A stretch of 64,000 nt of DNA from Patescibacteria group bacterium (GCA_022705905.1 JAKJDO010000002.1:8872-72871); one strand, 5' to 3'; positions 1 to 60,102 are shown, counted from the first letter of the stretch. Numbers and translations: made by a program. Notes: generated by a model from the sequence alone, not told the origin.

Positions 1-477
1 CAAGAAGGTATTTTCGTTTACGATTTCCATGATCCGAATTTTCACGAGAAGTTAGTCGCCAGCGACGAATTAAAGAAAAAAGTTTGGCAACCGACAGAGA
101 TTTATATGTACCCTCATAATATATTGCTCAATTTTTGGAGTGAGTTGGGGCTCGTTGGAATGCTATTGTTTGTTTGGATATTTATTAAATTCTTTTGGGT
201 TTTAATTTCGAATTTGATAATCGAAAAAAGATATTTTTGTCATCCCCGCGAAAGCGGGGATCTAGAGCCTACTTGTAATAAGAATGAGATTCCCGCCTGC
301 GCGGGAATGACAAGAAGGTATTTTATTAATTTAGGATTATTGTGCGCAATGATAGTAATAGTAATTCACGGACTAGTTGACGTTCCGTATTTTAAAAATG
401 ATTTGTCGGTGATGTTTTGGATAATGGTAGCGATGCAGAGTTTAATAAATTTGCAAACAAAGAATAAAGAGATTTAA
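1..477 (+). CDS. O-antigen ligase/Wzy_C-like membrane protein, C-terminal part (5' end outside window)
   Basis: Frame 1 is open from base 1 into track ORF 106..477. The YPHNILLNFWSELGLVGMLLF loop is typical of Wzy_C ligases, with TM segments. An in-frame GC-rich repeat lies at 238-312. Confidence 0.55.
   Translation, partial: QEGIFVYDFHDPNFHEKLVASDELKKKVWQPTEIYMYPHNILLNFWSELGLVGMLLFVWIFIKFFWVLISNLIIEKRYFCHPRESGDLEPTCNKNEIPACAGMTRRYFINLGLLCAMIVIVIHGLVDVPYFKNDLSVMFWIMVAMQSLINLQTKNKEI
238..312. repeat. GC-rich double-hairpin mini-repeat (TGTCAT...ATGACA termini), copy inside a CDS
   Basis: tgtcatCCCCGCgaaaGCGGGGatc ... gatTCCCGCctgcGCGGGAatgaca. Read through in frame as FCHPRESGDLEPTCNKNEIPACAGMTRR. 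Confidence 0.8.
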
Positions 478-484
478 ATTTTGT

Positions 485-1213
485 ATGAAAATAGTTTTGC
501 AAAAGTATATAGCTGATTCCGGGCATTGTTCGCGTCGGCAAGCCGAAGAATTAATAAGAAACAAAAAAGTTGTAGTAAACGGAAAAACGTCAGAATTAGG
601 AATGAAAGTAGACGACCGAGATAAAATTCAGGTAAATAATAAAAACATTGCAGCTCAAAAAGAAAAAGTATACATTATATTAAATAAACCCAGAGGTTAT
701 ACTTGTACGAATAGAAAATTTACGGGTGAAAAAAATGTTTTTGATTTAGTTAACACACCCCGGCCTGCGGCCGCCCCTCTCAAGAGGGGAATAGAAACTA
801 GGTTGTTTGTGGTGGGAAGATTAGATAAAGATAGTCGAGGATTGGTTCTGTTGACTAACGATGGTGATCTGTCGTTAAAAATGACACATCCAAGATATGG
901 ACATGAAAAAGAATACATAATTACAATTTCTAATTTTAAATTTCTAATTTCTAAACAATTTATTAATGAATTAATTTTAAAATTAAAAAAAGGAGTTGAC
1001 ATTGGCGAAGGTGATGGGGTGGTAAAAGTCAAAGATGCCAAATATTTAGGAGACAATAAGTTTAAAATTATTTTGACCGAGGGGAAGAAAAGGCAGATTA
1101 GGAGAATGTTTAAAGCGATTGGTTGCGAAATAGAAGATCTGGTGAGAGTAAGAATCGGCAGAATAGAATTAGGCAATTTAGCGCAAGGTAAATTTAAAAA
1201 AATAAAAATATGA
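485..1213 (+). CDS. Pseudouridine synthase, RsuA/RluB family (S4 domain plus catalytic domain)
   Basis: S4-like N-terminus (KYIADSGHCSRRQAEELI) and the VVGRLDKDSRGLVLLTNDG catalytic motif. Ends with TGA at 1211-1213. Confidence 0.85.
   Translation: MKIVLQKYIADSGHCSRRQAEELIRNKKVVVNGKTSELGMKVDDRDKIQVNNKNIAAQKEKVYIILNKPRGYTCTNRKFTGEKNVFDLVNTPRPAAAPLKRGIETRLFVVGRLDKDSRGLVLLTNDGDLSLKMTHPRYGHEKEYIITISNFKFLISKQFINELILKLKKGVDIGEGDGVVKVKDAKYLGDNKFKIILTEGKKRQIRRMFKAIGCEIEDLVRVRIGRIELGNLAQGKFKKIKI
757..790. repeat. Short GC-rich twin-hairpin insert translated in frame (PRPAAAPLKRGIE)
   Basis: cggccTGCggccg and ccccTCtcaaGAgggg hairpins in an otherwise AT-rich CDS, just upstream of the GRLD motif. Confidence 0.5.
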
Positions 1214-1214
1214 T

Positions 1215-1550
1215 ATGACAAAATTTTTAGCTTTTTCAAGCGCAATATTACTAGGCTTAATCACTGTATTTGGTGATTATTTAATTAAAAAAGGAAGTTT
1301 GAAAATTAGTTTTTCTGGTTGGTAATATTTATTGGCAGGTTGTATAATCTATGGTTTAACTGGAGTTGGTTGGTTTTTTGTTTTTCGGAGAATTGAAATA
1401 TCTGATGTCGGCGCCATATATTCAATGACCTGCATTGTGGCGCTAGCCATGCTCGGCGTTATAGTTTTTCACGAGAGATTAAGTCCGGGAGAGATTTTAG
1501 GTATTGTTTTTGCGATAGCTTCCGTTATTCTGCTCTATAGATTTTCATAA
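1215..1550 (+). pseudogene. SMR/EamA-like small 4-TM transporter interrupted by an in-frame TAA (1323-1325)
   Basis: ATG at 1215 is in the same frame as track ORF 1332..1550. The combined product (about 111 aa, MTKFLAFSSAILLGLITVFGDYLIKKGS...W*YLLAGCIIYG...) reads like one small multidrug/ArnE-like protein. Confidence 0.45.
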
Positions 1551-1565
1551 ATATTTTTAAAATAT

Positions 1566-1880
1566 ATGAACAACAAAGATATAATAAAATGGAGTTTAAT
1601 TAATTCGTTGGGCGTTGTAGTTTATGTAGCATTGGTGTCAACAGTAATGCAGAATGGGGAAAAGATATTTGGCGAGATGAAAAATTATGTCGGACCGATG
1701 GCTTTTTTGTTGCTATTCGTTTTTTCTGCGCTAGTTACTGGGCTTCTTATCTTAGGTCGTCCCGTTTATTTATTTTTAGACAGTGCCAAGAAAGAAGCGG
1801 TAAAGATGCTAATTTATACCGTCGGTTGGATGTTCGTAATTATTATCTTGATGTTGGTAGTAAATATGTTATTGAAATAG
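1566..1880 (+). CDS. Small membrane protein, unknown function
   Basis: Track ORF, three predicted hydrophobic helices. Confidence 0.5.
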   Translation: MNNKDIIKWSLINSLGVVVYVALVSTVMQNGEKIFGEMKNYVGPMAFLLLFVFSALVTGLLILGRPVYLFLDSAKKEAVKMLIYTVGWMFVIIILMLVVNMLLK

Positions 1881-1887
1881 AACTAAG

Positions 1888-1977
1888 GGAGAGGTGCTAG
1901 AGTGGTTGAATAGGACGCTCTCGAAAAGCGTTGGGCTCGCAAGAGTTCCGGGAGTTCGAATCTCCCCCTCTCCGCCA
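1888..1977 (+). tRNA. tRNA-Ser (anticodon CGA), CCA encoded
   Basis: Acceptor ggagagg/cctctcc, anticodon stem acgct/agcgt with loop CTCGAAA, long variable arm, T-loop ttcgaat, 3' gCCA. Confidence 0.9.
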
Positions 1978-2007
1978 GTTGAATTTTTATAAAATATTTT
2001 TTATTTT

Positions 2008-2937
2008 ATGTTAAATTTTATCTTTTTTATCATTTCACTTTTTTTAGTTATTAAAAGCGCTGACTATGCCATTCATTATTCTTCTTGTTTGGCTGAAGGT
2101 TTAAAATTTTCAAAGTATGTAATCGGGTTTTTGTTGGTCGCCTTTATTTCTATCATTCCCGAAGCTTTTATTTCTATCGCTTCGGCTATGCAGGGGGCGC
2201 CAGCTTTTGGTTTAGGGACGATTTTTGGTTCCAATGTTGCTGATTTAACTTTGGTATTCGCAATCGTCGCCTTTGTTGCTTCCGATCATATTAAAGTTGA
2301 AAGCAAAATTATAAAAAATAGCCTGCCTTATATTTTAATAATGTCTACACCTATAATTTTTGGATTGAATGGGCACTATTCTAGAATAGAAGGAGCAGTT
2401 TTGGTTTTAATTGGCGTTTCTTTCTATTATTTAGTTTTAAGAAAAGAAAAGAGGGAAAATATCGTCGAGAAACGCTGTTTTATCTGGAGGCATTTTTTAC
2501 TATTGCTAATTAGCATGGTCGTTTTGTTGTTTGCTTCAAATATGACGGTAAAATTCGGAGTGTCTTTAGCTAACTTTCTTCAAATCAACCCAGTTTTAGT
2601 GGCTATGCTGTTTGTCGGTTTAGGCACAACTTTACCGGAATTATTTTTTTCTATCAAAGCAGTTAGAAATAATCACGACAGCTTAGCTATGGGCGATATT
2701 TTGGGTACTGTAATAACCGACGCTACTATTATCGTAGGTATTTTAGCCCTAATAAATCCATTTATTTTTGATCAAAAAATTATTTACGTTACTGGAATGT
2801 TTATGATTTTTGCTGTTATTTTACTACTTCATTTTATGAAAACTGGAGCGGTTTTAACAAAAAAAGAAGGATTATTTCTGTTGTTTTATTATTTGGCTTT
2901 TGTTTTAACCGAATTTTCTATTAACAACTTATTTTAA
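2008..2937 (+). CDS. Ca2+/Na+ antiporter family (CaCA, YrbG-like) membrane protein
   Basis: Two alpha-repeat motifs, GSNVADLTL and GTTLPELFFS; about 10 TM segments. Confidence 0.8.
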   Translation: MLNFIFFIISLFLVIKSADYAIHYSSCLAEGLKFSKYVIGFLLVAFISIIPEAFISIASAMQGAPAFGLGTIFGSNVADLTLVFAIVAFVASDHIKVESKIIKNSLPYILIMSTPIIFGLNGHYSRIEGAVLVLIGVSFYYLVLRKEKRENIVEKRCFIWRHFLLLLISMVVLLFASNMTVKFGVSLANFLQINPVLVAMLFVGLGTTLPELFFSIKAVRNNHDSLAMGDILGTVITDATIIVGILALINPFIFDQKIIYVTGMFMIFAVILLLHFMKTGAVLTKKEGLFLLFYYLAFVLTEFSINNLF

Positions 2938-3126
2938 ATTGTAAAATACTTGGTCTTCTGGAGAAAATAGCAAACCTAAAAAACAAGAAAAAGGCAGCGA
3001 GTGGGCACTCGTTTTTTTATTTAGCCAGTCAGAAAAATAGCTTCACTTTTTAGCATTAATTTGCTATTGTAATAGTAGGAAAATGGCAAAGAAATAAATT
3101 TTTATAGGTAAATTTAGCGAGATATT

Positions 3127-3948: not shown

Positions 3949-3975
3949 ATATCAAGGAAGTTGTTTGTAAAACTT

Positions 3976-6357: not shown

Positions 6358-7458
6358 ATGAAGCTTAGTGATTTTGATTATAATTTACCGAGAGAATTAA
6401 TTGCGCAAAAACCAGCAAAACCGCGAAATCATTCGCGGCTTTTGGTTTTAGATAAAAAATCTGGCAAAATTGAACATAAACATTTTTATAACATCATTGA
6501 TTTTTTGCAAGCCGGTGATGTTTTGGTTTTAAATAATTCTAAAGTTTTTCCAGCGCGTTTAATCGGCAATAAGAAAGAGACTGGTGGAAAGATGGAAGTA
6601 TTTTTGCACAGACGACAAAATGATTCTGTTTGGCAGTGTATGCTTGGCGGCCGCGGTGCGAAAGTTGGTTTGATGGTCGTGTTTAACAAAGGTTTAGAAG
6701 GAGAGGTTATAAAAAACAATAACGACGGAACTTGGGAGGTTAAATTTAATAAAGCCAGAGAGGCGATGATAAAAGTTGTTAACCAAATTGGGCAAGTGCC
6801 ATTACCGCCTTATATTAAACGGCATAATTCTAAAAAAAGCGACGTTGATAACTATCAAACTGTATATGCAGATAAAATTGGATCAGTGGCGGCGCCTACG
6901 GCCGGTTTGCATTTTACGCCGAGTTTGCTCAAAAAAATAAAATCCAAAGGCGTTAAAGTTTTGTATGTAACTTTGCATGTCGGTTTGGGGACTTTTTCGC
7001 CAGTTAAAGTTGATGATTTAACGAAACATAAAATGCATGCTGAGTGGGTCGAGATTAAAAAAGAAACCTTGCAAGAAATAATTAAAGCCAAAAAAGAAAA
7101 GAAAAGGATTGTTGCCGTAGGTACTACATCGGCCAGAACACTAGAATCATTTTTTAGTGTCATTCTGAGCGTAGCGAAGAATCCCGAAAATTGGCGCATC
7201 AATCATGGGATCCTTCGTCTTGATAAATCAGGACTCAGGATGACAGATTATTCTGGTTGGACCGATATTTTTATTTACCCTGGCTATAAATTTAAAGTTG
7301 TCGATTCTTTGATCACTAATTTTCACTTGCCAAAATCTAGTTTAATCATGCTTATTTCCGCCTTGGCTGGCAGTAATAAAATTAAAAAAGCTTATCGGGA
7401 GGCTATTAAGAAGAAATATAGATTTTATAGCTACGGCGATGCGATGTTTATTTATTAA
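6358..7458 (+). CDS. queA: S-adenosylmethionine:tRNA ribosyltransferase-isomerase QueA
   Basis: MKLSDFDYNLPRELIAQKP start, VAVGTTSARTLES, TNFHLPKSSLIMLISA, YRFYSYGDAMFIY C-terminus. Contains an in-frame repeat at 7158-7245. Confidence 0.9.
   Translation: MKLSDFDYNLPRELIAQKPAKPRNHSRLLVLDKKSGKIEHKHFYNIIDFLQAGDVLVLNNSKVFPARLIGNKKETGGKMEVFLHRRQNDSVWQCMLGGRGAKVGLMVVFNKGLEGEVIKNNNDGTWEVKFNKAREAMIKVVNQIGQVPLPPYIKRHNSKKSDVDNYQTVYADKIGSVAAPTAGLHFTPSLLKKIKSKGVKVLYVTLHVGLGTFSPVKVDDLTKHKMHAEWVEIKKETLQEIIKAKKEKKRIVAVGTTSARTLESFFSVILSVAKNPENWRINHGILRLDKSGLRMTDYSGWTDIFIYPGYKFKVVDSLITNFHLPKSSLIMLISALAGSNKIKKAYREAIKKKYRFYSYGDAMFIY
7158..7245. repeat. GC-rich hairpin mini-repeat inside queA
   Basis: tgtcattctgagcgtagcgaagaatccc...gggatccttcg...ctcaggatgaca. 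Translated as SVILSVAKNPENWRINHGILRLDKSGLRMT between the LES and TDIFIYPG motifs. Confidence 0.8.
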
Positions 7459-8299: not shown

Positions 8300-8992
8300 A
8301 TGAAAGATTTCTCTAAATTAGAAAAGGAGATTGGTGTAAGATTCAATGACATCAATCTACTTAAACAATCCGTTGTTCATCGTTCTTATTTAAATGAGCA
8401 TCCTAAATTTGAACTAGGTCACAATGAACGTTTAGAATTTTTAGGTGACGCAGTTTTGGAGATTGTAGTTACAGAGCATTTATTTCGCACTTTTCCCGAC
8501 ACTCCGGAGGGGGATTTAACTAACTGGCGCGCTAGTTTAGTCAATGCTAATATGCTAGCAGAGGTGGCTCATGATATTAAATTAGGAGACTTTCTCTATT
8601 TGTCAAAAGGAGAGGCGAAAGATTCTAATTCTAAAGCGCGACAATATATTTTAGCTAATGCCGTTGAAGCTTTAATTGGTGCTATTTATTTAGACCAGAA
8701 GATAAGCGTGGCCAGAAAATTTATTCTTGGTAAGATAGTTTCAAAACTAGACAATATTTTAACTCATAAATTATATCTAGATCCAAAATCTAGATTTCAG
8801 GAAAAAGCCCAGGAAATTTACCGAGTGACCCCGCATTATAAAGTATTAAAGGAATCAGGACCAGACCATGCTAAGATTTTCGAAGTCGGGCTCTACATCG
8901 ACGATAAGTTAATCGCTCGTGGCAAGGGTTCGTCGAAACAAGAGGCGCAAGTTGATGCGGCTGCCAAAGGGATAAAAAAAGAAAATTGGTAA
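8300..8992 (+). CDS. rnc: Ribonuclease III
   Basis: NERLEFLGDAVLE signature, C-terminal dsRBD (KSRFQE...GKGSSKQEAQ). The ATG at 8300 is preferred. Confidence 0.9.
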   Translation: MKDFSKLEKEIGVRFNDINLLKQSVVHRSYLNEHPKFELGHNERLEFLGDAVLEIVVTEHLFRTFPDTPEGDLTNWRASLVNANMLAEVAHDIKLGDFLYLSKGEAKDSNSKARQYILANAVEALIGAIYLDQKISVARKFILGKIVSKLDNILTHKLYLDPKSRFQEKAQEIYRVTPHYKVLKESGPDHAKIFEVGLYIDDKLIARGKGSSKQEAQVDAAAKGIKKENW

Positions 8993-9005
8993 TAATTATT
9001 ATATC

Positions 9006-9084
9006 GTCATGCTGAGCCAGTGGGCGAAGCATCCCGAAAATAGCACATAAGACAAGGGATCCTTCGCTGACGCTCAGGATGACA
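9006..9084. repeat. GC-rich hairpin mini-repeat (intergenic rnc/pilT)
   Basis: gtcatgctgagc...gcgaagcatccc...gggatccttcgc...gctcaggatgaca, the same family as 7158-7245. Confidence 0.8.
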
Positions 9085-9094
9085 GACATATACT

Positions 9095-10675: not shown

Positions 10676-13945
<3,270 letters not shown>

Positions 13946-20895: not shown

Positions 20896-21870
20896 ATGGC
20901 AAAAATTAATTATAAAATGATAAAAGAGATAAAAGAGCAACCGCAAGTCATGGAAAAAATCATTAATAAGCATATTAAAGGTAGTGAGATAGTGTTTGAT
21001 GAATTTAAAAAGATGGCTCGCGATTTAAAGAAAATAAAAAGATTTATTTTTTTAGGTTGCGGCTCTTCTTTTCATTCGGCTGTTTATGGCAACTTAGTTT
21101 TTGAAGAAATAACTGGTCTAAATTGCGAAGTTGACTTCGCTGATGAATTTAATAAACGCAACCCGGTAGTCGAGACGCAGACCGTTGTTATAGTTTTAAG
21201 TCAATCGGGAGAGACAAAAGAAGTTATAAAAGCGATTAAAACAGCCAAACAGAAGAAGACATTCGTAATTGGTATTACGAACAATAAAAAATCAAAAATT
21301 GCAAAATTGGTTGACGTCCATATAGACCAAGAAGCTGGTAAAGAAGTGGCTGTGCCAGCAACCAAAACTTTTTCTAGCCAGTTGTTGATTTTATTTTTAC
21401 TGGCTTTATTTATAAGACAAGATGTTAAACGCGGTTTGAAAATAATAAATGATGTGAAAAAAATACCAGCGTTGATAAAAAAAAGTTTGACTGACGAGAA
21501 GGTAATTAAAAAATTGGCGATTGAAATTAAAAACAAACATAAGTTCATTATTTTAGGCCACAAATATAATTACCCCCTGGCTTTAGAGGGAGCTTTAAAA
21601 TTGAAAGAAGCTGCTAATGTTTTTGCTGAGGGCATAACTACGGTCGAATTTGATCACGGACCCAAAGCCTTGCTTAATAAAGTCGAATTGATAAAAATAG
21701 ATAAAAGAATTTTAGAAATTAATAAAAAGAAAATAATAACACCATTTGCGCCAGAGGCAATATTACCGATTGTGTCAGTAATTCCATTGCAGCTTCTAGC
21801 CTTCAATTTAGCTATACAAAAAGGGATAAATGTCGACAAGCCGCAAAATATAAAAAAAATTGTTAAATAA
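20896..21870 (+). CDS. Double-SIS-domain sugar isomerase (GlmS isomerase-domain-like, AgaS/GlmD-type)
   Basis: IKEIKEQPQV, GCGSSFHS, LSQSGETKE; the C-terminal KPQNIKKIVK parallels the GlmS C-terminus. Confidence 0.75.
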   Translation: MAKINYKMIKEIKEQPQVMEKIINKHIKGSEIVFDEFKKMARDLKKIKRFIFLGCGSSFHSAVYGNLVFEEITGLNCEVDFADEFNKRNPVVETQTVVIVLSQSGETKEVIKAIKTAKQKKTFVIGITNNKKSKIAKLVDVHIDQEAGKEVAVPATKTFSSQLLILFLLALFIRQDVKRGLKIINDVKKIPALIKKSLTDEKVIKKLAIEIKNKHKFIILGHKYNYPLALEGALKLKEAANVFAEGITTVEFDHGPKALLNKVELIKIDKRILEINKKKIITPFAPEAILPIVSVIPLQLLAFNLAIQKGINVDKPQNIKKIVK

Positions 21871-21877: not shown

Positions 21878-21990
21878 TGCCATTCCCGCGAAAGCTTGCC
21901 TGCCGGCAGGCAAGCGGTAATCTCCACCCGAACGGCTGGCATTCAGTCGGGCAGACAGAAGTGGATTACGGCTCAAAGTCCGGGATGACA
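21878..21990. repeat. Composite GC-rich repeat (nested hairpins) fused in frame to the 5' end of the next ORF
   Basis: ccattcccgcgaaagc[ttgcctgccggcaggcaa]gcggtaatc ... cccgaacggctggcattcagtcgggcag ... gattacggctcaaagtccgggatgaca. Confidence 0.75.
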
Positions 21991-22002: not shown

Positions 22003-23259
22003 ATGCAGCAAATAGCCGACCTACATATTCATTCTAAATACTCCCGCGCTTGTTCGCGGGATTTAACGCTTCCCAATATTGATAGAACTTGCCGTATTAA
22101 GGGAGTCGACATCATTGCTACTGGTGATTTTACATTTCCGGCTTGGTGGCGCGATATAAAAAAATTGTTAGAAGAGACGACGTTTGGCTCTGGTTTATAT
22201 AAATTAAAAGAGACTGGCGATGATAATGTAAAATTTATACTTTCCACGGAGTTAGCGTTAATTTATAAAAAAAATGATAGGGTAAGGCGCATTCATATTG
22301 TTGTTCATGCACCTAATATCGAAGCAGTCGAGGAGCTAAATAAATTTTTAGATAGTAAATATAATATCAAGTCAGATGGTCGGCCAATTTTAGGTATGCC
22401 AGCCGAAGATTTAATAAATACATGCCTAGCTATTCATCCGCAATTTTTAATTTATCCGGCGCATATTTGGACGCCCTGGTTTTCGGTGTTTGGTTCTAAG
22501 TCAGGCTTTAATTCGATGGAAGAATGCTTCGGTGATTTCACTAAAAATATCTATGCTTATGAAACAGGATTATCAAGCGATCCGGAAATGAATTGGCGCT
22601 TGTCAGCGCTAGACAAATTAACGTTACTTTCCAACTCCGACGCCCACTCTTTACCTAATATCGCCCGTGAAGCTAACATTTTTGATCTGAAGGAGGCAAC
22701 TTATAAAGAATTATATGGAGCTATCAAAAATAAAGATATAAAAAAGATAAAATATACAATTGAGTTTTATCCAGAAGAGGGCATGTATCATTACGATGGT
22801 CATCGCGATTGTCGTGTTAGGTTTTCTCCAGAAGAATCAAAACTACATAAGAATATTTGTCCGGTCTGCAAAAAGCCTTTGACGATTGGCGTGATGAATA
22901 GGGTCGACGAACTAGCTGACCGTCCTATGGGGTTTGAGCTGAAAAGTTTGCCTGGTTTTATAAAATTAGTAGAGCTGGACAAGATTATCGCTGAAAGTTT
23001 GGGTATAAAAAGCCGCCATTCGTCCAAAGTGCAGAAGGAATACAATGCTTTAATAGAGAGGTTTGGCAGCGAAATGGACATATTGATAGATAGGGCAGTT
23101 GAAGATTTAGAACAAGCTACTTTACCAAAAATCGCTGAAGGAATAAGGCGAGTTCGAGAAGGTAAGTTGATAATTGAACCAGGATTTGATGGTCAGTACG
23201 GAATAATAAAAATATTTGATCGCGAGGAGGCGGCTAGCCAGCAGTCCAGTCTGTTTTGA
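22003..23259 (+). CDS. Endonuclease Q-like PHP-domain nuclease (TIGR00375 family)
   Basis: IADLHIHSKYSRA, YPAHIWTPW, LSNSDAHS, zinc finger CPVCKKPLTIGV, C-terminal GFDGQYGIIKIF. Collinear with archaeal and Bacillus EndoQ as I recall them. Confidence 0.7.
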   Translation: MQQIADLHIHSKYSRACSRDLTLPNIDRTCRIKGVDIIATGDFTFPAWWRDIKKLLEETTFGSGLYKLKETGDDNVKFILSTELALIYKKNDRVRRIHIVVHAPNIEAVEELNKFLDSKYNIKSDGRPILGMPAEDLINTCLAIHPQFLIYPAHIWTPWFSVFGSKSGFNSMEECFGDFTKNIYAYETGLSSDPEMNWRLSALDKLTLLSNSDAHSLPNIAREANIFDLKEATYKELYGAIKNKDIKKIKYTIEFYPEEGMYHYDGHRDCRVRFSPEESKLHKNICPVCKKPLTIGVMNRVDELADRPMGFELKSLPGFIKLVELDKIIAESLGIKSRHSSKVQKEYNALIERFGSEMDILIDRAVEDLEQATLPKIAEGIRRVREGKLIIEPGFDGQYGIIKIFDREEAASQQSSLF

Positions 23260-26748: not shown

Positions 26749-26869
26749 AGAATTTTATAAATGTAATTACACCCTCCTTTAAAGAGTGGTTTTAATAGTT
26801 TTATTATAAAATTTTTTATAATATAATGCAAGCAAAAAAGAAAATGGCTAAAAAGCCATTTTATAATAG

Positions 26870-26943
26870 TGGACATAAGAGGACTCGAACCTCTGGCCTC
26901 CACGATGTCAACGTGGCGCTCTAACCAACTGAGCTATATGTCC
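26870..26943 (-). tRNA. tRNA-Val (anticodon GAC), CCA not encoded
   Basis: Minus strand: ggacata-ta-gctc-agttggtt-agagc-g-ccacg-TTGACAT-cgtgg-aggcc-agagg-ttcgagt-cctct-tatgtcc-a. Confidence 0.9.
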
Positions 26944-26969
26944 AGTATATAAAAATATTTAAGATAATT

Positions 26970-27040
26970 AACGTGGCGCTCCCCGCCCGACTGAACGATG
27001 ACAGTCGTTCGGGCGGGTAACCAACTGAGCTATATGTCCC
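26970..27040 (-). pseudogene. Degenerate 5'-half copy of tRNA-Val with a 36-nt GC hairpin in the D-loop
   Basis: gggacatatagctcagttggtt[acccgcccgaacgactgtcatcgttcagtcgggcgggg]agcgccacgtt; identity with the real gene stops inside the anticodon loop. Confidence 0.6.
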
Positions 27041-27120
27041 TACTTCGCCAAGTCTACATGGGGCAAGCTAAAACTTTCCGTCAAAAGATTGCTTGTCATC
27101 CGAAGCTTAAGCGTAGGATA
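27041..27120. repeat. GC-rich repeat fragments between the tRNA genes
   Basis: cttcgccaagtctacatggggcaag (compare 49643-49670) and tgtcatccgaagcttaagcgtaggat. Confidence 0.55.
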
Positions 27121-27121
27121 G

Positions 27122-27194
27122 TGCGCTAGGATGGATTTGAACCATCGACCCCCGCTTTATAAGAGCGGTGCTCTAACCACTGAGCTACTAGCGC
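27122..27194 (-). tRNA. tRNA-Ile (anticodon UAU)
   Basis: Minus strand: gcgctag-ta-gctc-agtggtt-agagc-a-ccgct-CTTATAA-agcgg-gggtc-gatgg-ttcaaat-ccatc-ctagcgc-a. Confidence 0.85.
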
Positions 27195-27220
27195 AGTTAA
27201 TTTGTACAACCGACTTTGGC

Positions 27221-27308
27221 GAGCGGTGCTCCTCGCTCGACTGAGCGATGACAGTCGTTCGGGCGGGTAACCACCGAATCTGCCTGCGCAGGCAGACTAC
27301 TAGCGCCC
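27221..27308 (-). pseudogene. Degenerate 5'-half copy of tRNA-Ile with two GC hairpin insertions
   Basis: gggcgctagtag[tctgcctgcgcaggcaga]ttcggtggtt[acccgcccgaacgactgtcatcgctcagtcgagcgagg]agcaccgctc; homology ends at the anticodon loop. Confidence 0.6.
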
Positions 27309-27385
27309 TGCTACATTTCTAACAAAAAAAGGACTTACATCCTGATTTTTAATATATCATTGTCAATGGTTTTTTTCAAGATATT

Positions 27386-28558
27386 TTACAGAGGCATTTG
27401 TCGTAACTGTTCTTTAATTGTTTCACTCACTTCTTTTTCAGCATCAAAAATATTTTTATTCAATGTTATTTTGACTAATGATTTCGTACCAACTGGGTGC
27501 CATTTTTTAGCTAGTAGTAAAGAATTGATATTGCGGATAGAATAAATTAAGGCTTTAGTAATAGTCTCTTCCGACTCCTGGTTATCATCAATATTTTTTT
27601 CTAGAGTTTCATAAAATAGGACAATTACTTTAGCTTGTGGTATGTTGATAATTAATTCGTCTATGACCTCGTTTAAATCTTCTTCTTCTGAACCGGTTTT
27701 GCTAAAATCGGCGGAAGTTAAAACTGACCAGATTAAAACATTATCTAAGTCGCCAGTTAATCGCGCCAATACTCGCCCCCAAAGTTTTAGAACATTAAGT
27801 GGACGCGAACGATAAAGATGATTAACGATTTCCTCGCGGCGCGCTCCCATCGCTATTAATTGCGCGGAAGCTGATAAAGAATTAGGCGTAATATTTTGTG
27901 TTTTAAAACTTTTAGTTTTAGAAATAATACCAGCTAAAAGGCAAGTAGCAATGTCTTCATCGATTAAATCCCTAGAGTATTCTGAAAATAAATTGAAAAG
28001 AATTTCGGCGGTGGCAATGGCTGTAATTTGGACATTATTAATTTGGCCATATTCTTCGTTTTCGGAATGATGATCAATATTAATAATCGGTACTTGATAG
28101 AAGAACTCTGTGTCATTGTCATAAATAGAGCCAAGCGATTCTAAATCGGGTGTATCCAGAGTAATAATTAAATCATATTTAAAACTACCGGCGTGGGTAG
28201 TTATGTCTTCTTTGGTAAAAAAACCTTCTTTTGGCGAGATAATGAAATTTAAAGTGTTAGCTTCAGCTTGGTATTTTATTTTTTCAACCTTAGCATTAGT
28301 CGTATCTAAAGAAATGACAAATTTACGCAAGTTGTTAAACGAATTGCTAATTTTGCTGAAGGCTGGTAAAAATTGGAATAATTTACCATGGTCAAGCTGT
28401 TCAGCTACCACATCAACATTTTTATCCATCTTTTTCAAAATCAAATACATAGCTAAAGCCGAGGCCACAGCGTCACCATTCCAAAGTTTATTAAAAGTAA
28501 CCACGATATTGTTAGCTTTTTTTATTTGTTCAAAAATTTGTTGGTTTTGATCTAACAT
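27386..28558 (-). CDS. DHH/DHHA1 phosphoesterase (NrnA-like)
   Basis: DGDAVASALA, INIDHHSENE (DHH), GGH-like region. Confidence 0.75.
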   Translation of the reverse strand: MLDQNQQIFEQIKKANNIVVTFNKLWNGDAVASALAMYLILKKMDKNVDVVAEQLDHGKLFQFLPAFSKISNSFNNLRKFVISLDTTNAKVEKIKYQAEANTLNFIISPKEGFFTKEDITTHAGSFKYDLIITLDTPDLESLGSIYDNDTEFFYQVPIINIDHHSENEEYGQINNVQITAIATAEILFNLFSEYSRDLIDEDIATCLLAGIISKTKSFKTQNITPNSLSASAQLIAMGARREEIVNHLYRSRPLNVLKLWGRVLARLTGDLDNVLIWSVLTSADFSKTGSEEEDLNEVIDELIINIPQAKVIVLFYETLEKNIDDNQESEETITKALIYSIRNINSLLLAKKWHPVGTKSLVKITLNKNIFDAEKEVSETIKEQLRQMPL

Positions 28559-37356: not shown

Positions 37357-37438
37357 TGTCATTTCGAGCGCTAGCGAGAAATCGCTTATAGATTGTCGAC
37401 GGAGTTTAAGGGATTCCTCCCTGACGGTCGGAATGACA
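37357..37438. repeat. GC-rich hairpin mini-repeat
   Basis: tgtcatttcgagcgctagcgagaaatc ... gggattcctccctgacggtcggaatgaca. Confidence 0.8.
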
Positions 37439-38607: not shown

Positions 38608-38635
38608 TGTGTCATTCCCGCGCAGGCGGGAATCC
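38608..38635. repeat. Half-copy of the GC-rich repeat
   Basis: tgtgtcattcccgcgcaggcgggaatcc. Confidence 0.75.
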
Positions 38636-38728
38636 ATAATTTTTCAATGCTCGCACCGTTCTAGTTCAGTAATTTAAATAAAAAAAGAAGGCAAAATGCT
38701 TTGACCTTCTTTTTTTGTATTGATTCTA

Positions 38729-39207: not shown

Positions 39208-39299
39208 TGTCATCCCGGGCCTGACTTGGGATCCATTTCTGACTGCCCGGCTGAATGCCAGTCTTTCGGGCGGGGATTCCTGCCTGCGCGGGAATGACA
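39208..39299. repeat. Composite GC-rich repeat (TIR halves plus a ggctgaatgccag core)
   Basis: tgtcatcccgggcctgacttgggatcc ... tctgactgcccggctgaatgccagtctttcgggcgg ... ggattcctgcctgcgcgggaatgaca. The core is the inverted form of the 21878-21990 core. Confidence 0.8.
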
Positions 39300-46970: not shown

Positions 46971-47038
46971 TGTCATCCCCGCGAAGGCGGGGATCTAAAA
47001 ATAAGGAAATAGATCCCGGCTCGGAGGCCGGGATGAAA
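46971..47038. repeat. GC-rich hairpin mini-repeat
   Basis: tgtcatccccgcgaaggcggggatc ... gatcccggctcggaggccgggatgaaag. Confidence 0.8.
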
Positions 47039-49505: not shown

Positions 49506-49726
49506 TTGACAAAATACCAGTGAGAGTTATAATATAAAAAGCAGCTTAAGAGGAGATTGGCACCTCATTTAAAATAGCTACTACGATTAAGAAGCCTTTC
49601 AAAGATTTTGGAAGGAAGCTAGATGGAACCGCGGGGCACCCGCCTTCGTCAAGACTACGGCGAGGCAAAGGAAACCTCGTTCTAGCAACTTAAATTTTAT
49701 TTAGGTTGTCAGAACGAGGTTTTTAA
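49506..49726 (+). promoter_or_regulatory. Promoter plus T-box leader (probable Gly specificity) with a GC-rich repeat in the antiterminator loop
   Basis: TTGACA-16-TATAAT at 49506-49533. Antiterminator gctaga[TGGAACC]gcgggg ... cctcgt tctagc (49618-49686). Competing terminator 49672-49724 plus T5. UUGGCA at 49557-49562. Confidence 0.7.
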
Positions 49727-49736
49727 ATTATCAATT

Positions 49737-55990: not shown

Positions 55991-56006
55991 AGTTTGTTCT
56001 TTGACA

Positions 56007-56296: not shown

Positions 56297-56395
56297 GAGT
56301 GGCGTTAGTCACTATTTTTCGGAGACTAGGATACCGTCCTACTCCATTCGGGGGTCTTACCCAGATCCCCTTATTTTCCTAAAAATAATTTATAT

Positions 56396-56527: not shown

Positions 56528-56570
56528 ACAAAACAAAAACGCTCTTATTAAATTTTTTAAGGAGGATAAT

Positions 56571-56846: not shown

Positions 56847-56874
56847 CCCAGACTTGAAAAAAAAGGAGAAGACC

Positions 56875-56931
56875 ATGAACCTGAAAGAATATTTTATCGA
56901 CAATGACGACAAAGACCAAAGAGTATTTTAA
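56875..56931 (+). CDS. Possible 18-aa acidic peptide (MNLKEYFIDNDDKDQRVF)
   Basis: SD AAAGGAG 6 nt upstream; hand-translated. Confidence 0.3.
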   Translation: MNLKEYFIDNDDKDQRVF

Positions 56932-56958
56932 GATATACTCTTGGAGAAGAGTGGAAAA

Positions 56959-57222
56959 ATGCCAGTTGGTTACTGTGCAGTGTACGGTTTTGACAATGGT
57001 GCGGCGTACATTATAGATGAACCCAGCGAGACAAAGAAGTCTTTCTCATATTTTGAGAGCTTAACTAAGCGAGAAGCTTCTTTAGGAAAAGACTCCGGTA
57101 TAGTTATCAGGTCGAATGGCGTGCCATTTTTAACTGTTGGCGAACCATTTGAGAAATGGCTCAGGGCTTATAAAATGCCTGGGCATGACGTATTTGTCCT
57201 GGAGGGGAAAGACGGAACCTAG
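56959..57222 (+). CDS. Island ORF C, 87 aa, unknown
   Basis: Track ORF 56941..57222; the ATG at 56959 is preferred. Confidence 0.5.
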   Translation: MPVGYCAVYGFDNGAAYIIDEPSETKKSFSYFESLTKREASLGKDSGIVIRSNGVPFLTVGEPFEKWLRAYKMPGHDVFVLEGKDGT

Positions 57223-57242
57223 ACCGTCAGCGAGTATTGCTT

Positions 57243-57290
57243 GCTCCTCGCCATATACCTTTTCAATTATTGGCGAGGAGCTTGATTTTT
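57243..57290 (+). terminator. Intrinsic terminator after ORF C
   Basis: gctcctcgcca...tggcgaggagc followed by a T-run. Confidence 0.8.
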
Positions 57291-57464
57291 CTTATTAATG
57301 TGTTAATATAAAAACAGTATGATACAAGCTAAGCAACAAGCATTGTTATTAGGTTTATTGTTATTACTACCTTCGCGGGTGGCTTGTTTTCATGTAAAAA
57401 ATAGGTAAATAAGATTTACATAAAAACGCAGAATGGCTGCCCGCATCAAGCGGGTAGTTTTTTT
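57282..57464 (+). promoter_or_regulatory. Module U2: promoter, tiny ORF 57319..57408 (MIQAKQQALLLGLLLLLPSRVACFHVKNR), alternative hairpins, terminator
   Basis: TTGATT-16-TAATAT. atgatacaagc (57319-29) pairs with gcttgttttcat (57382-93). gcgggtggc (57375-83) pairs with gctgcccgc (57436-44), which otherwise pairs with gcgggtag (57450-57) followed by T7. Confidence 0.5.
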
Positions 57465-57492
57465 GTGATCAAAAGGAGGAGGTTCATTCAAG

Positions 57493-57777
57493 ATGAGTAA
57501 ATTACAAGCACAAACATCTGACAAACAATTTTCGTGTATCGGCGGTTGTGGCGACCTCGTGTATAGCAAAGGTGAAAAGTGTGCTTCCTGCCAAAGAGCA
57601 GAAGCGACTGTAACTTTTTTGATCAAACAAGGAGGGGGTGAAATAAGAGACTGGGAAAGTTGCCCAACATATCAAAGGATCGAGCAACCGTGTGAAAATG
57701 AGTGCTCCGGTTGCATGAGGGCCTGGAGTATAAAAGAGACGAGAAGACAAGTCGGCGCAGCAATAGTCAATGCCTAA
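57493..57777 (+). CDS. Island ORF D, 94 aa, Cys-rich (two zinc-ribbon-like clusters)
   Basis: SD GGAGGAGG. CIGGC...CASC and CPTYQRIEQPCENECSGC. Confidence 0.55.
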   Translation: MSKLQAQTSDKQFSCIGGCGDLVYSKGEKCASCQRAEATVTFLIKQGGGEIRDWESCPTYQRIEQPCENECSGCMRAWSIKETRRQVGAAIVNA

Positions 57778-57797
57778 ACGATACAAGGAGGAGCTCT

Positions 57798-57947
57798 ATG
57801 AAAAATTCTATGGAAGATCGTGTTTGCCGTTGCTCCAATCCGCATTACAGAGGCGGAGTATGTATAACTTGCGGCGGGAAGTTTGTCGTCAAGTCAATTC
57901 GGCCGCTTTGTTGCCGAGTACCAATTCCGCCCAAGCCGCCTAGGTGA
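57798..57947 (+). CDS. Island ORF E, 49 aa, zinc-ribbon-like
   Basis: SD AAGGAGG. CRC...CITCGG. Confidence 0.5.
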   Translation: MKNSMEDRVCRCSNPHYRGGVCITCGGKFVVKSIRPLCCRVPIPPKPPR

Positions 57948-57972
57948 CAGTCGGATCAATGCTCTCTTGTTC

Positions 57973-58005
57973 GAGGGGTGGCTTTATGTCCACCCCGCTT
58001 TTTTT
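57973..58005 (+). terminator. Intrinsic terminator after ORF E
   Basis: ggggtgg ctttatgt ccacccc followed by T7. Confidence 0.8.
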
Positions 58006-58034
58006 ATTAAAATTAGGTAAAAAATAGGACATGC

Positions 58035-58237
58035 TTGCATTTTTGTGTAATTTTGGTATAATTATCCACAAGAGTAAAGATATGATTAAAACATCACTAA
58101 GAAACAATTTCTATTTTGGCTTTTATTTTAGTCTCCAGGGGAGATCGTTTCTTAGTGGTGTTTTGACGAAATAGTAAAAAACAAACACCATTAGGGAAAA
58201 CAAAACGAGCCTCCCCGTAAACCGGGGAGGTTTGTTT
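58035..58237 (+). promoter_or_regulatory. Module U3: promoter, tiny ORF 58082..58174 (MIKTSLRNNFYFGFYFSLQGRSFLSGVLTK), 18-bp hairpin, terminator
   Basis: TTGCAT-16-TGgTATAAT. aaaacatcactaagaaac (58088-105) pairs with gtttcttagtggtgtttt (58147-64). ggggag (58138-43) can pair with ctcccc of the terminator cctccccg/cggggagg (58210-30). Confidence 0.5.
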
Positions 58238-58261
58238 ATTAAGAAAAATAGTTTAAATAAC

Positions 58262-58389
58262 ATGAAAAAGATATTACAAACAACGAGCTTCTATTTCTAC
58301 CTTTACTTTTTTAGATAAAGGCTGGTTGTTTGTGATATTTTAAATCACAAAAAGAAAAAGAACCGGCCTTGAAGAAAGTCCGGTTCTTT
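58262..58389 (+). promoter_or_regulatory. Module U4: tiny ORF 58262..58318 (MKKILQTTSFYFYLYFFR), 14-bp hairpin, terminator-like stem
   Basis: atattacaaacaac (58271-84) pairs with gttgtttgtgatat (58325-38). ctggttgtt (58322-30) can pair with aagaaccgg (58358-66), which otherwise pairs with ccggttctt (58380-88). Confidence 0.45.
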
Positions 58390-58448
58390 AATTATATAGA
58401 TCTTTAGCAATTATCTTAACTATCCTACATCAGGGAGGAAGACGACAG

Positions 58449-58667
58449 ATGGGAAAAGAGCTTATTTGGGTTGGAGAAAAGTGTCATCAGCTAGTAACAA
58501 TCGCTAGTAACGACAAGCACGAGGGGGTGTGTCCAGAGTGCGGTAACGTAGAGTACGCGATACGCGGGTTTTTACATTCCGATGGCACTATTGAAGAGGC
58601 AACTATCGACAGCGTCAGTCGGTGGTTAAGGGAAAAGGTGCAAGAAGCAGCAGCAAAAGCTGCTTAA
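58449..58667 (+). CDS. Island ORF F, 72 aa, zinc-ribbon-like (CH...CPEC)
   Basis: SD GGGAGG; track ORF. Confidence 0.55.
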   Translation: MGKELIWVGEKCHQLVTIASNDKHEGVCPECGNVEYAIRGFLHSDGTIEEATIDSVSRWLREKVQEAAAKAA

Positions 58668-58686
58668 TACGAGGAGGTTTGAAACC

Positions 58687-59037
58687 ATGAAAGAAACACA
58701 GACACAGACGATAATTTCAGGCGCGATGTTTTTCCGGCTCGGCGGTTACTTTGAGGACGACACCCATCTTCAGTGGCTCAGAAAAGCCCTTGAGGAAAGG
58801 GGTGTTATGCTGATCGATACAGAGCCGTTGCCTTTGAAGCCGCATCTCAATCAGAAGCCGACAGGAACCCAGGTCTCAATCGAGGCCGGCATACTCGAAC
58901 CGCTTGAAGTGACGGAACTGATGTGTCCGGCATTGAGAGCAAGAGTCCTCGGCTTCTCTTGGACGGCTGAGCCCGACCCTGAGCATTCGGAAAGGATCGA
59001 TTCTGTCGGCACCAAGTCGCAGGAAGCTGCGAGGTGA
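58687..59037 (+). CDS. Island ORF G, 116 aa, unknown
   Basis: SD GAGGAGG; about 52% GC in the sampled row 58801-58860. Confidence 0.55.
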   Translation: MKETQTQTIISGAMFFRLGGYFEDDTHLQWLRKALEERGVMLIDTEPLPLKPHLNQKPTGTQVSIEAGILEPLEVTELMCPALRARVLGFSWTAEPDPEHSERIDSVGTKSQEAAR

Positions 59038-59041
59038 CGAC

Positions 59042-59209
59042 ATGGACGAACAGGCAGTAGGAGAATACAACTTCTTCACTTATGATTCAGGCGACAAGGG
59101 CGACCACCAGCCGGCAGAAGGGGAGACATCCAGTTCTTCTCCATCATCAACAACAGCGCCTTCAGAACAGAAGCGCATCAAGTACCTCTTCTCAGATGTG
59201 GGGAGGTAG
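59042..59209 (+). CDS. Island ORF H, 55 aa, acidic/Ser-rich
   Basis: ATG 4 nt after the ORF G stop codon; hand-translated MDEQAVGEYNFFTYDSGDKGDHQPAEGETSSSSPSSTTAPSEQKRIKYLFSDVGR. Confidence 0.4.
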   Translation: MDEQAVGEYNFFTYDSGDKGDHQPAEGETSSSSPSSTTAPSEQKRIKYLFSDVGR

Positions 59210-59249
59210 CAAAGCCCGATAGCAAACGGGGAAGGAGGTAGTCAGATTA

Positions 59250-59290
59250 GGTCCGGGGAACGTAAGTACCTGGACCTTCTTTTTATTTTT
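59250..59290 (+). terminator. Intrinsic terminator closing the F-G-H unit
   Basis: ggtccgg...cctggacc followed by a T-rich tract. Confidence 0.7.
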
Positions 59291-59359
59291 AAAACTTGAC
59301 AATTTTTAAAACTTATGCTATACTTTTTAAACAAAAAATGCCCTTTGAAAGGAAAAACA

Positions 59360-59713
59360 ATGGACAAAAAGCATATATTGGTTCTTGATGACGAGCCAGA
59401 ACTTACAAATTTTTTGTCAGATTGCCTTGACAGCTATGAAGTCAAGCAGTGCACCAAAACCGACGAAGCTATCGACGAGTTAAAAAACAGCCCAGAGAAA
59501 TATTTTGGCTGCATAATTGACAACGATATCGATGAAGTTGGTGGTGGCGTAAGGTTTGCCAAAACGATAAAGAGCCTAAAGATCGTAACCACGATCGTTA
59601 TGTTCACGGGCAAACCTTTGCAAAAAGAGGAAGAAGCGGTAATCAGGAATACGGTTGATCGGTTAGAAAAGAAGCCGGTCTCTGTCAAAACAATCAGAAC
59701 AATATTCCCTTAG
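59360..59713 (+). CDS. Divergent stand-alone receiver (REC) domain protein
   Basis: ILVLDDEPE, IIDNDI, MFTG, EKKP pattern. Promoter TTGACA-17-TATACT at 59296-59324. Confidence 0.6.
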   Translation: MDKKHILVLDDEPELTNFLSDCLDSYEVKQCTKTDEAIDELKNSPEKYFGCIIDNDIDEVGGGVRFAKTIKSLKIVTTIVMFTGKPLQKEEEAVIRNTVDRLEKKPVSVKTIRTIFP

Positions 59714-59724
59714 AGGAGGAAGAT

Positions 59725-60006
59725 ATGGACGTGATAGTTTTCTGGATTATTATTTTTTTTGTCAGTGTACTTTCTGGTATTTTATTTTGGGGTATGAGCA
59801 ACAACAAAGGACAGTCAATCGCGATGTTCATCTTGAGTGTTGCACTCATGTTTCTCGGGTTATTCTGGTTCCTTCCTGCCCTTAATCTTCAGAGGGAGCC
59901 GGGAGCAATCATTGTGGTCGGCTTCATTGTTCTTTGTATTTCATTTGTGTCGGGAGGCCTTCAGTCTTTCGTTGATTGCAATAACAGGAGAGTAAATAAA
60001 GCCTGA
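59725..60006 (+). CDS. Small 3-TM membrane protein
   Basis: Track ORF; the start is coupled to the upstream stop codon via GAGGAGG. Confidence 0.5.
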   Translation: MDVIVFWIIIFFVSVLSGILFWGMSNNKGQSIAMFILSVALMFLGLFWFLPALNLQREPGAIIVVGFIVLCISFVSGGLQSFVDCNNRRVNKA

Positions 60007-60032
60007 GCTAGTTAATAAAATAGCTCTGGCGG

Positions 60033-60072
60033 CCCTCGGTCCACCGTTTCACGGACCGGGGGTTGTTTTATT
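60033..60072 (+). terminator. Intrinsic terminator
   Basis: ccctcggtcc...ggaccggggg followed by ttgttttatttt. Confidence 0.75.
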
Positions 60073-60076
60073 TTCT

Positions 60077-60102
60077 GGATTCCCGCCTGCGCGGGAATGA
60101 CA
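60077..60102. repeat. Half-copy of the GC-rich repeat
   Basis: ggattcccgcctgcgcgggaatgaca, identical to the right half of the copy at 238-312. Confidence 0.8.

Follow-up and report, generated by a model that had tools for sequence, protein, structure and literature searches.

Background

The closest described relatives of the repeats analysed here are the repetitive extragenic palindromes (REPs) that carry the tag CGTC. The repeats in question are GC-rich hairpin elements with the termini TGTCAT and ATGACA, scattered over a 64,000-nt stretch of DNA from a Patescibacteria group bacterium (JAKJDO010000002.1:8872-72871, GCA_022705905.1), the whole of which is called the window below. According to the portions of the CGTC REP survey drawn on here (Di Nocera 2013, PMC3733652), the tag is "changed to TGTC" in many repeats, and the unit consists of an 8-9 bp stem with A/T pairs at positions 1-2, a loop of 4-5 nt, and an unpaired CCA tail. 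In the same portions, the units are mostly arranged as inverted (HH) dimers with 20-100 bp spacers near the 3' ends of open reading frames (ORFs), while single units also occur. The survey, which distinguishes the families CGTC-1 to -4, also described units inside genes that encode 20-30 aa, as well as wrongly annotated N-termini; the CGTC-1 peptides given in the supplement are VIPAKAGI, SFPRKRES, DSRLRGND, and WMPAFAGMT, and its dimer peptides (SF..ES ... DSR.RGND) show a tags-outward order. CGTC-1 is the dRS3 repeat of Neisseria, and CGTC-1 and CGTC-4 are the RPE-6 and RPE-4 elements of Rickettsia. The survey found CGTC REPs in 5 phyla, mostly in Alphaproteobacteria, and reported neither a transposase nor a RAYT linked to them.

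A recent study extended dRS3 to a 28-nt sequence, the NTS (CGTCATTCCCGCGMAVGCGGGAATCYRG), and described the enzyme that recognizes it (Chenal 2025, PMC11893778). SsnA, a 94-aa single-domain GIY-YIG protein of family cd10448, binds NTS only as single-stranded DNA (ssDNA) and cleaves a few nucleotides upstream of the tag. The ssn genes are typically flanked by NTS (NTS-ssnA-NTS) in the manner of an insertion sequence, 81% of the genomes carrying over 200 motifs encode a homolog, and the NTS/Ssn pair modulates natural transformation in Neisseria. The wider motif of this class, SRM, was given as the pattern HGTCWYN(0-2)YYVSBRHN(0-5)WNVSBRGN(0-2)RNCYNB (PMC11893778).

The repeats of the window are, quite probably, CGTC/TGTC-tagged REP units of this class (dRS3/NTS, RPE-4/6, SRM), with their dimers being gene-less miniatures of NTS-ssn-NTS units that were spread by a trans-acting Ssn-type enzyme.

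Structure and Statistics of the Repeats

In the window, the modules form seven inverted dimers; two more stand singly, and one further module is decayed. The repeat is thus present at all ten loci listed in the first-pass annotation, in decayed form and only in part at 27041-27120, where just 27094-27120 is module-like. The loci are as follows.

238..312, dimer A, 75 nt: two type-1 modules, tags outward; in frame in a Wzy_C-like gene, encoding CHPRESGD...IPACAGMT; left module fits the SRM pattern.
7158..7245, dimer B: type-2 modules (5 bp, tandem G.A, and GC pairs); in-frame insert of about 29 aa in QueA (VILSVAKNP...GLRMT).
9005..9084, dimer C: type 2; left tag CGTCAT, the canonical CGTC; fills the spacer between the RNase III and T2SSE genes; site empty in the related contigs L220 and L221.
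21878..21990, dimer D: composite; left tag TGCCAT; nested hairpin GCTTGCCTGCCGGCAGGCAAGC in the left loop; spacer core CCCGAACGGCTGGCAT...; flanked by an upstream ORF that stops at 21870 and by the EndoQ gene, whose probable start is 22003.
37357..37438, dimer E: type 2; intergenic, upstream of a glycosyltransferase gene.
38608..38637, plus strand, single module F: type 1, TGTCATTCCCGCGCAGGCGGGAATCCAT; between convergent genes; fits the SRM pattern.
39208..39299, dimer G: carries the 57-nt spacer core of dimer D inverted; between two minus-strand genes.
46971..47038, dimer H: both modules type 1; decayed right tag ATGAAA; fills the spacer between the TyrRS and ArgRS genes.
60075..60102, minus strand, single module I: type 1, TGTCATTCCCGCGCAGGCGGGAATCCAG; one mismatch to the Neisseria NTS consensus.
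27094..27120, plus strand, decayed single module: TGTCATCCGAAGCTTAAGCGTAGGATA; directly downstream of tRNA-Ile.

Each module consists of an unpaired TGTC or CGTC tag, a stem that opens with A-T and T-A followed by six G/C-rich pairs, a 4-nt loop, the returning stem, and a C-rich tail that is often CCA, as in the module at 38610 (TGTC-ATTCCCGC-GCAG-GCGGGAAT-CCA). Nearly all tags are TGTC; CGTC is found at the left of copy 9005, and decayed tags are TGCC at 21878 and TTTC at 47038. The CCA tail is present at 38634-38636, on the minus strand at 60076-60078, and after 39232, and the other modules end in CTA, CTC, or CCC. In the dimers, two modules are inverted with their tags outward around an AT-rich spacer of varying length, for a total of 68-113 nt.

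The modules fall into two types that share tag, tail, and dimer plan. Type 1 is a perfect 8-bp hairpin with the stems ATTCCCGC/GCGGGAAT and ATCCCCGC/GCGGGGAT and the loops GAAA, GCAG, and GAAG; it makes up copies 238, 38608, 39208, 46971, and 60075 and the left arm of 21878. Type 2 has the form ATTCT-GA-GCG...CGC-GA-AGAAT, that is, a stem of nine positions with five A/T-rich pairs, a tandem G.A/A.G at positions 6-7, and two to three G-C pairs, closed by a loop of 3-4 nt. It comprises copies 7158, 9005, and 37357 and two further copies upstream of the window, located on contig L128, which reaches 3.7 kb leftward beyond the window start. The arms of a type-2 dimer also pair with one another over the full element length. 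The tandem mismatch is kept in every type-2 copy (7158-7185, 9005-9034, and 37357-37383 with their right-arm partners), and this conservation suggests a specific recognised shape, more than a plain hairpin.

Shuffle controls showed that the modules are far more frequent than expected. Under a strict definition (tag plus GC hairpin), seven modules were found in the window versus a mean of 0.03 and a maximum of 1 in 200 shuffles, and the published SRM pattern matched three times (238, 38610, and 60075) versus a mean of 0.11 in 100 dinucleotide-preserving shuffles. Pairs of [CT]GTCAT...ATGAC[AG] spaced 50-110 nt occurred five times against 0.98 expected, which is a weak test on its own. DNA folding z-scores were between -2.5 and -5.8 for six of the seven dimers, and only -1.1 for the composite copy 21878. 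Two loose hairpin scanners had returned 12 matches versus 4 expected, which represented AT-rich noise, and they were replaced by a scanner requiring GC pairs. A search of the window for TGTCAT N{20,50} ATGACA gave no match, since the true gaps are 56-101 nt, and Rfam holds no family for the hairpin repeats.

Several copies are closely related to each other. The units at 38610 and 60073 match at 29 of 30 nt, and copies 21878 and 39208 have a 57-nt spacer core in common in opposite orientations. The inner core CCCGAANGNCTGKCAT, with four matches versus 0.27 expected, likewise occurs in both orientations and is shared by these two copies, as had been claimed at first sight of the sequence.

Small GC hairpins of the GCCTGCC...GGCAGGC type were also observed nested in the 4-nt loops of TGTC modules, at 21894-21915 in the window and at 8300-8325 on the host contig L222 (in the dimer at L222 8251-8336). 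A CCCGAA...CGGGC core was found in tRNA D loops as well as in the spacers of dimers. Apparently, new hairpins insert into the loops of those already present.

Comparison with CGTC REPs, NTS, and Other Repeat Families

The window repeats share with the CGTC REPs the tag, the stem with its A/T start, the 4-nt loop, the CCA-like tail, the HH dimers, the placement after ORFs, the intragenic units of 20-30 aa, and the spurious N-termini. The CGTC-1 peptides are the same translations as CHPRESGD and IPACAGMT of dimer A. Two features of the window, the type-2 module with its tandem G.A and the nested loop hairpins, have no counterpart in the portions of PMC3733652 drawn on here. In comparison with NTS, the module at 60075-60102 equals CGTCATTCCCGCGMAVGCGGGAATCYRG with one mismatch, three window modules fit the SRM pattern, and the dimers point their tags outward as NTS-ssn-NTS units do. 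Unlike NTS, the window tags are mostly TGTC instead of CGTC, type 2 falls outside the SRM pattern, no ssn gene is located among or beside the modules in the DNA examined, and the host phylum is unmentioned in the main text of that paper. As the window dimers have the ends of NTS-ssn-NTS units without the gene, they are best read as gene-less miniatures.

The RPE elements of Rickettsia are also palindromic repeats lying in frame in conserved proteins of a small AT-rich genome. QueA of R. conorii has a CGTC-4 unit at residues 170-178, whereas the insert is located at about residues 267-295 here, and the long RPE-1 type has no counterpart in the window. The in-frame behaviour is thus shared with RPE, while membership by sequence comes through the CGTC class alone. 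The Coxiella elements QMITE1 and QMITE2 (PMC5896051) are small, structured, dispersed repeats overlapping ORFs as well, and QMITE2 holds a REP; they measure 150-400 bp with direct repeats of 2-11 nt, in contrast to the 68-113 nt elements without direct repeats found here. A match to the QMITEs was rejected, as these elements are larger and have direct repeats, and the Coxiella paper gives no sequences.

The first-pass annotation had proposed a non-autonomous MITE/REP-like family (MITE, miniature inverted-repeat transposable element) with a TnpA(REP)/IS200-like partner. A dispersed, non-autonomous, REP-like family with no cognate enzyme gene in the window is well supported, and the absence of a transposase from the window agrees with our Pfam scans of ten flanking ORFs and the ORF list, in which none was seen. 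The proposed partner is probably wrong, for the enzyme documented to go with hairpins of this type is a GIY-YIG nuclease that has a single domain and acts on ssDNA. REP and REPIN doublets moved by RAYT, an IS200/IS605-like Y1 transposase, as known for the GTAG REPs of Pseudomonas and E. coli, do follow the same logic of a tagged hairpin, inverted doublets, intergenic placement, insertion without target duplication, and a small enzyme that acts on ssDNA and is encoded between two hairpins. However, the tag is GTAG there and (C/T)GTC here, the enzyme is a Y1 HUH transposase versus a GIY-YIG nuclease, and Di Nocera 2013 (PMC3733652) reports CGTC families without a RAYT link. No ORF for a Y1 transposase was seen in the window by the same Pfam scans and ORF list. 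The repeats do not belong to the REPIN/RAYT group on these features, and we regard movement by a RAYT as unlikely.

The hairpins assigned here to the CGTC/NTS class are not confined to this lineage. In a scan of one genome per species with CCCGCNNNNGCGGGRATGACA, at least 120 stretches matched, and the 80 listed come from more than 20 phyla; about 100 chance matches are possible for a 17-base pattern in 596 Gb, so single matches prove little. Among the matches listed, every close pair has the orientation (-,+) with a distance of 69-106 nt, and such pairs belong to Alpha- and Gammaproteobacteria, Abditibacteriota, and Parcubacteria. A GIY-YIG gene of 94-97 aa lies between or beside such hairpins in Methylotenera (L025), Cloacimonadota (L079), and Omnitrophota (L082). 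A 23-base pattern for type 2 matched more than 120 viral contigs of IMG/VR, again with tags-outward pairs.

Candidate Enzyme and Proposed Mechanism

The host-genome DNA examined amounts to 88 kb, or 8% of the genome, and its sole GIY-YIG gene encodes P0165, an 81-aa single-domain protein (PF01541) that shares 34% identity with the L025 protein flanked by NTS. A link of P0165 to the repeats as their enzyme is plausible but unproven.

Several observations weigh against the assignment to an Ssn-mobilised family. Only three of about 17 modules, and none of type 2, fit the strict SRM pattern; we infer that the other type-1 modules miss it by their tail or by single-base departures. The window has no ssn-like or other GIY-YIG ORF, and P0165 is not flanked by TGTC modules, being located between a tRNA-Glu half-copy and tRNA-Glu, and resembles UPF0213 in comparisons with the PDB. 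No GIY-YIG gene was found near type-2 modules in 120 viral contigs (1 Mb). All contigs of the species are 99.9-100% identical, and no strain-level insertion polymorphism was seen among them. Finally, mobilisation of the hairpins by Ssn enzymes is so far a hypothesis, and no transposase was found linked to CGTC REPs (PMC3733652).

If the repeats do belong to this class, the hairpin would form in ssDNA, where an Ssn-type GIY-YIG nuclease would bind it and cut a few bases upstream of the tag, as has been shown elsewhere. The enzyme, acting in trans and presumably encoded elsewhere in the genome, would then copy or move the units without target duplication. Copies would persist where they are harmless, such as short spacers after stop codons and tolerant protein loops (QueA, Wzy-like), and transcribed copies may act as RNA hairpins in polycistronic mRNAs, by analogy with REP biology.

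What is already known of these repeats is the CGTC REP and dRS3/NTS/SRM class and the RPE-like in-frame insertion. Novel points are the type-2 variant and the nested hairpins, the phylum of the host, how densely the repeats populate a minimal genome, and the repeated use of the same protein sites. Literature searches with the translated repeat peptides, and for Patescibacteria together with REP, returned nothing relevant.

Patescibacteria are thought to depend on DNA uptake. An Ssn-type system in this phylum would thus be worth attention. Extrapolation from the 88 kb suggests 100-150 copies per genome with few candidate enzymes, which would make this host convenient for asking what mobilises CGTC REPs.

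Copies inside Protein-Coding Genes

Copies 238 and 7158 were claimed to be translated in frame within conserved proteins, and this was borne out for the Wzy_C-like gene and for queA, both of which tolerate the insertion. In-frame copies where homologs lack them were found in QueA, in the Wzy-like protein (three times), and in an RluF-like protein, and the repeats thereby add loops of 25-33 residues to conserved proteins of a minimal genome. The RluF-like insert is of a different kind:

757..792, plus strand, double GC hairpin: 36 nt, different kind without TGTC tag; in-frame 12-aa insert in an RluF-like pseudouridine synthase.

The Wzy_C-like gene encodes 558 aa. Two further in-frame dimers lie just upstream of the window (L128 2934-3032 and 3259-3359), bringing the gene to three in-frame copies in total. 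For QueA, alignment with solved structures (PDB 1vky/1yy3) gave two aligned blocks, with query residues 257-286 unmatched versus six residues in the T. maritima chain, and the closest homologs free of the insert are P0003 and P0004 (72% and 71% identical, 343 aa). Many other QueA proteins of Patescibacteria have different inserts at exactly the same position as dimer B; several of these begin with S-V-I... and end with ...M-T, which are TGTCAT and ATGACA in frame. An AlphaFold model of QueA was too poor to place the insert (mean pLDDT, the predicted local distance difference test, 60.5, and below 50 at residues 278-293), and it was set aside as evidence.

The suggestion that the element is selected for in-frame insertion is unsupported. 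Across the genic copies the tag is translated in all three reading frames, and each genic copy is open solely in the frame used. The intergenic copies measured are 68, 80, 82, 92, and 113 nt long, none of the five being a multiple of three. In-frame copies are therefore survivors of selection, and being open in frame is no built-in property of the element.

Copy 21878 had been described as an N-terminal extension of the EndoQ ORF. This probably does not hold, as homology to P. furiosus EndoQ starts only from residue 47 and an ATG is present at 22003, 12 nt past the element; the copy is most likely intergenic and the extension probably non-coding. Gene callers give 460 or 364 aa for EndoQ. A metallophosphatase that follows another dimer is likewise called as 263, 312, or 368 aa (L222-L224 8347-8662), and the repeats thus create false N-terminal extensions.

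A further copy just upstream of the window had been proposed on account of a 14-mer at its start, and in contig L128 no copy precedes this 14-mer. The 14-mer CAAGAAGGTATTTT occurs at 1-14 and 311-324 of the window, 310 nt apart in different frames of one Wzy-like gene; at 1-14 it does not adjoin a repeat copy. Its repetition is probably due to chance in AT-rich DNA.

Spread of the Family and Signs of Insertion

Contig L220 represents the closest other species found (QueA 78% identical) and is syntenic with the left 14.6 kb of the region. Over these 14.6 kb, the window lineage has five dimers, whereas no TGTC module is present in L220. The site of the second Wzy copy, the RNase III/T2SSE spacer (in L221 as well), and the site of the RluF-like insert are empty in L220. 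At the QueA site, the copy-238 Wzy site, and the third Wzy site, L220 instead has unrelated AT-rich inserts of the GGAAATTGGAAATT type. The family has multiplied in this lineage after its split from the sister species, and the same protein sites have recurrently been taken by unrelated inserts, being either insertion hot spots or tolerant loops. Among 80 more distant relatives (446 kb), two to three good type-1 modules were found; these loci all surround one tRNA region, and the count is indicative only.

The L220 inserts themselves (2816-2850, 10800-10900, and the third Wzy site) encode the peptides KLEIGN and WKFGFWHLDF.

These comparisons bear on two other explanations. Hairpins evolved by the host and formed in place, for instance as terminators or for mRNA processing or stability, would account for the intergenic copies, which lie 4-25 nt past the preceding stop codon and leave 10-14 nt to the following start, and for stem pairing that is kept while the stem sequence varies. 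Such an origin is extremely unlikely, however, given in-frame copies at four coding positions, none in the syntenic DNA of the sister species, near-identical 26-30-nt units 20-60 kb apart, and a unit that is found in more than 20 phyla among the matches listed.

The other explanation is that of classical MITEs, which are deletion derivatives of DDE-type insertion sequences that end in TGT...ACA and, on cut-and-paste transposition, leave a target-site duplication. The TGTCAT/ATGACA ends are TG...CA like those of many DDE elements, and the folding of type-2 dimers into one long imperfect hairpin is MITE-like. Nevertheless, no target-site duplication was found at nine insertions or at three comparisons of filled and empty sites (W2, C, and Rlu), single units exist at 38608 and 60075, the putative terminal inverted repeat is itself a tagged hairpin identical to NTS, and no transposase occurs in the 88 kb. 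An origin as classical MITEs is accordingly very unlikely, and only the REP-like half of the initial MITE/REP-like label stands; it agrees with the CGTC REP assignment.

The repeats also break short-read assemblies. Contigs of the same strain end at 9087, at the edge of copy 9005-9084, and others end or begin in the tRNA and repeat region around 26.8-27.2 kb; these contig ends, at 9087 and within 26779-27194, are those of L004 and L214-L219.

Source of the DNA

The window has a GC content of 35%, and its host is Parcubacteria bacterium ADurb.Bin316. It includes three tRNAs and a bacterial 23S-5S rRNA pair, and homologs are annotated as Patescibacteria, Parcubacteria, or Falkowbacteria. The QueA protein of the window is 100% identical on several independent contigs (NCBI GCA_035388145.1 and GCA_002069505.1, ENA, and Logan), and the QueA-bearing contigs from independent assemblies equal the window DNA at 99.96-100%. 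Further assemblies match 23-30 kb at 99.9-100%, including JAXGYM010000001.1 (1,064,049 bp, GCA_040772285.1), and near-identical DNA (99.9-100%) is present in separate NCBI, ENA, JGI, and Logan assemblies. Because of this identity across independent assemblies, the repeat-bearing sequence is no assembly artefact. It is real and comes from an approximately 1-Mb genome of the candidate phyla radiation (CPR) found in digesters and sewage.

tRNA Half-Copies and GIY-YIG Cassettes

Two intact tRNA genes lie on the minus strand, tRNA-Ile(TAT) at 27121-27194 and tRNA-Val(GAC) at 26869-26943 (ARAGORN, Rfam). Each is preceded, 26 nt upstream, by a truncated copy of its own 5' half that ends in the anticodon loop.

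26970..27040, minus strand: 5'-half copy of tRNA-Val (positions 1-34); 36-nt D-loop hairpin at 26982-27017; 26 nt upstream of intact tRNA-Val 26869-26943.
27221..27306, minus strand: 5'-half copy of tRNA-Ile; hairpins at 27279-27296 and, decayed, at 27231-27267; 26 nt upstream of intact tRNA-Ile 27121-27194.

A 36-nt hairpin (CCCGCCCGAACGACTGTCATCG...) follows exactly after GGTTA of the D loop in each half-copy, and the Ile copy adds a second hairpin. The first-pass annotation spoke of a tRNA D-loop insert; the insert is real, and the hairpins reside in truncated 5'-half pseudo-copies, not in working tRNAs. The arrangement is identical in three independent assemblies. The nearest relative, L132, lacks this arrangement, and its tRNA-Val leader has a homolog in the window just upstream of the Val half-copy. 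A simple tandem duplication was rejected, as the 26-nt spacer does not resemble the leader, which itself has a homologous counterpart in L132. An integrase beside the tRNA cluster was ruled out as well, its neighbours being DHH and HSP20 genes.

According to a comparison of 80 related loci, the synteny DHH / tRNA-Ile / tRNA-Val is widely conserved, and tRNAs often come with partial copies of themselves. Half-copies were observed in the relatives L140, L141, L158, L167, L170, L192, L197, and L201 and in the host's own genome (L222 9915-10320). In the relatives, half-copies sometimes follow the intact tRNA, and GC hairpins are located in the D, anticodon, or T loops. The D-loop hairpin of the copies reads CCCGCCCG...CGGGCGGG in L140, L141, and L167 and CCCGCC...GGCGG in L192 and L201. 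In L141, L158, L192, L201, and L222 (at tRNA-Glu), the spacer between half-copy and tRNA encodes a GIY-YIG protein of about 80-90 aa (Pfam E-values 1e-13 to 1e-19). In L158, L192, and L201, its ORF extends into the intact tRNA, where the TAG of GGTTAG serves as the stop codon.

The half-copies of the window may be gene-less remnants, with a 26-nt spacer, of a mobile cassette composed of a tRNA 5' part with D-loop hairpin, a small GIY-YIG gene, and the intact tRNA; Ssn-like GIY-YIG enzymes of this phylum would then act on tRNA-gene hairpins and TGTC hairpins alike as their ssDNA sites, and GC hairpins would preferentially insert into the loops of hairpins already present, namely D, anticodon, and T loops, REP module loops, and dimer spacers. 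This proposal, drawn from sequence comparison, is tentative and, in our estimate, somewhat doubtful. A distant precedent is SegB of phage T4, a GIY-YIG homing enzyme in a tRNA cluster. No description of a tRNA half-copy/GIY-YIG cassette was found in the literature, and a 2026 paper on tRNA introns in Patescibacteria is silent on it. The cassettes are the most novel lead of this analysis and the one most worth follow-up.

One ENA contig (L214) differs from the window at this place. Between its positions 1-365, compared with window 27195-27400, a DHH gene end of about 90% similarity joins the intact tRNA-Ile without the Ile half-copy, and the sequence is 99.97% identical from there on. This join reflects either strain recombination or chimeric assembly at the tRNA.

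Other Features of the Window

A related hairpin had also been listed at 49637-49670. It has no relation to the family and forms part of a structured leader at 49560-49736, which carries a terminator-like hairpin (AACCTCGTTCT...AGAACGAGGTTTTT) and precedes a CYTH-like gene. None of the Rfam families scored above threshold for this leader, which may be an unclassified riboswitch or attenuator.

The 23S rRNA gene of the window is 3276 nt long. An insertion of about 185 nt (12089-12277), flanked by 43-nt inverted repeats, is located at E. coli positions ~1163-1170, in helix 45, which is a classic site of intervening sequences. Smaller insertions are present near positions 270-290, 540-550 (helix 25), and 653 (window 11364-11422, 10966-11107, and 11532-11582). 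A gene of the family PF05635 (23S_rRNA_IVP) was found 2.2 kb upstream of the window (L128 1128-1502).

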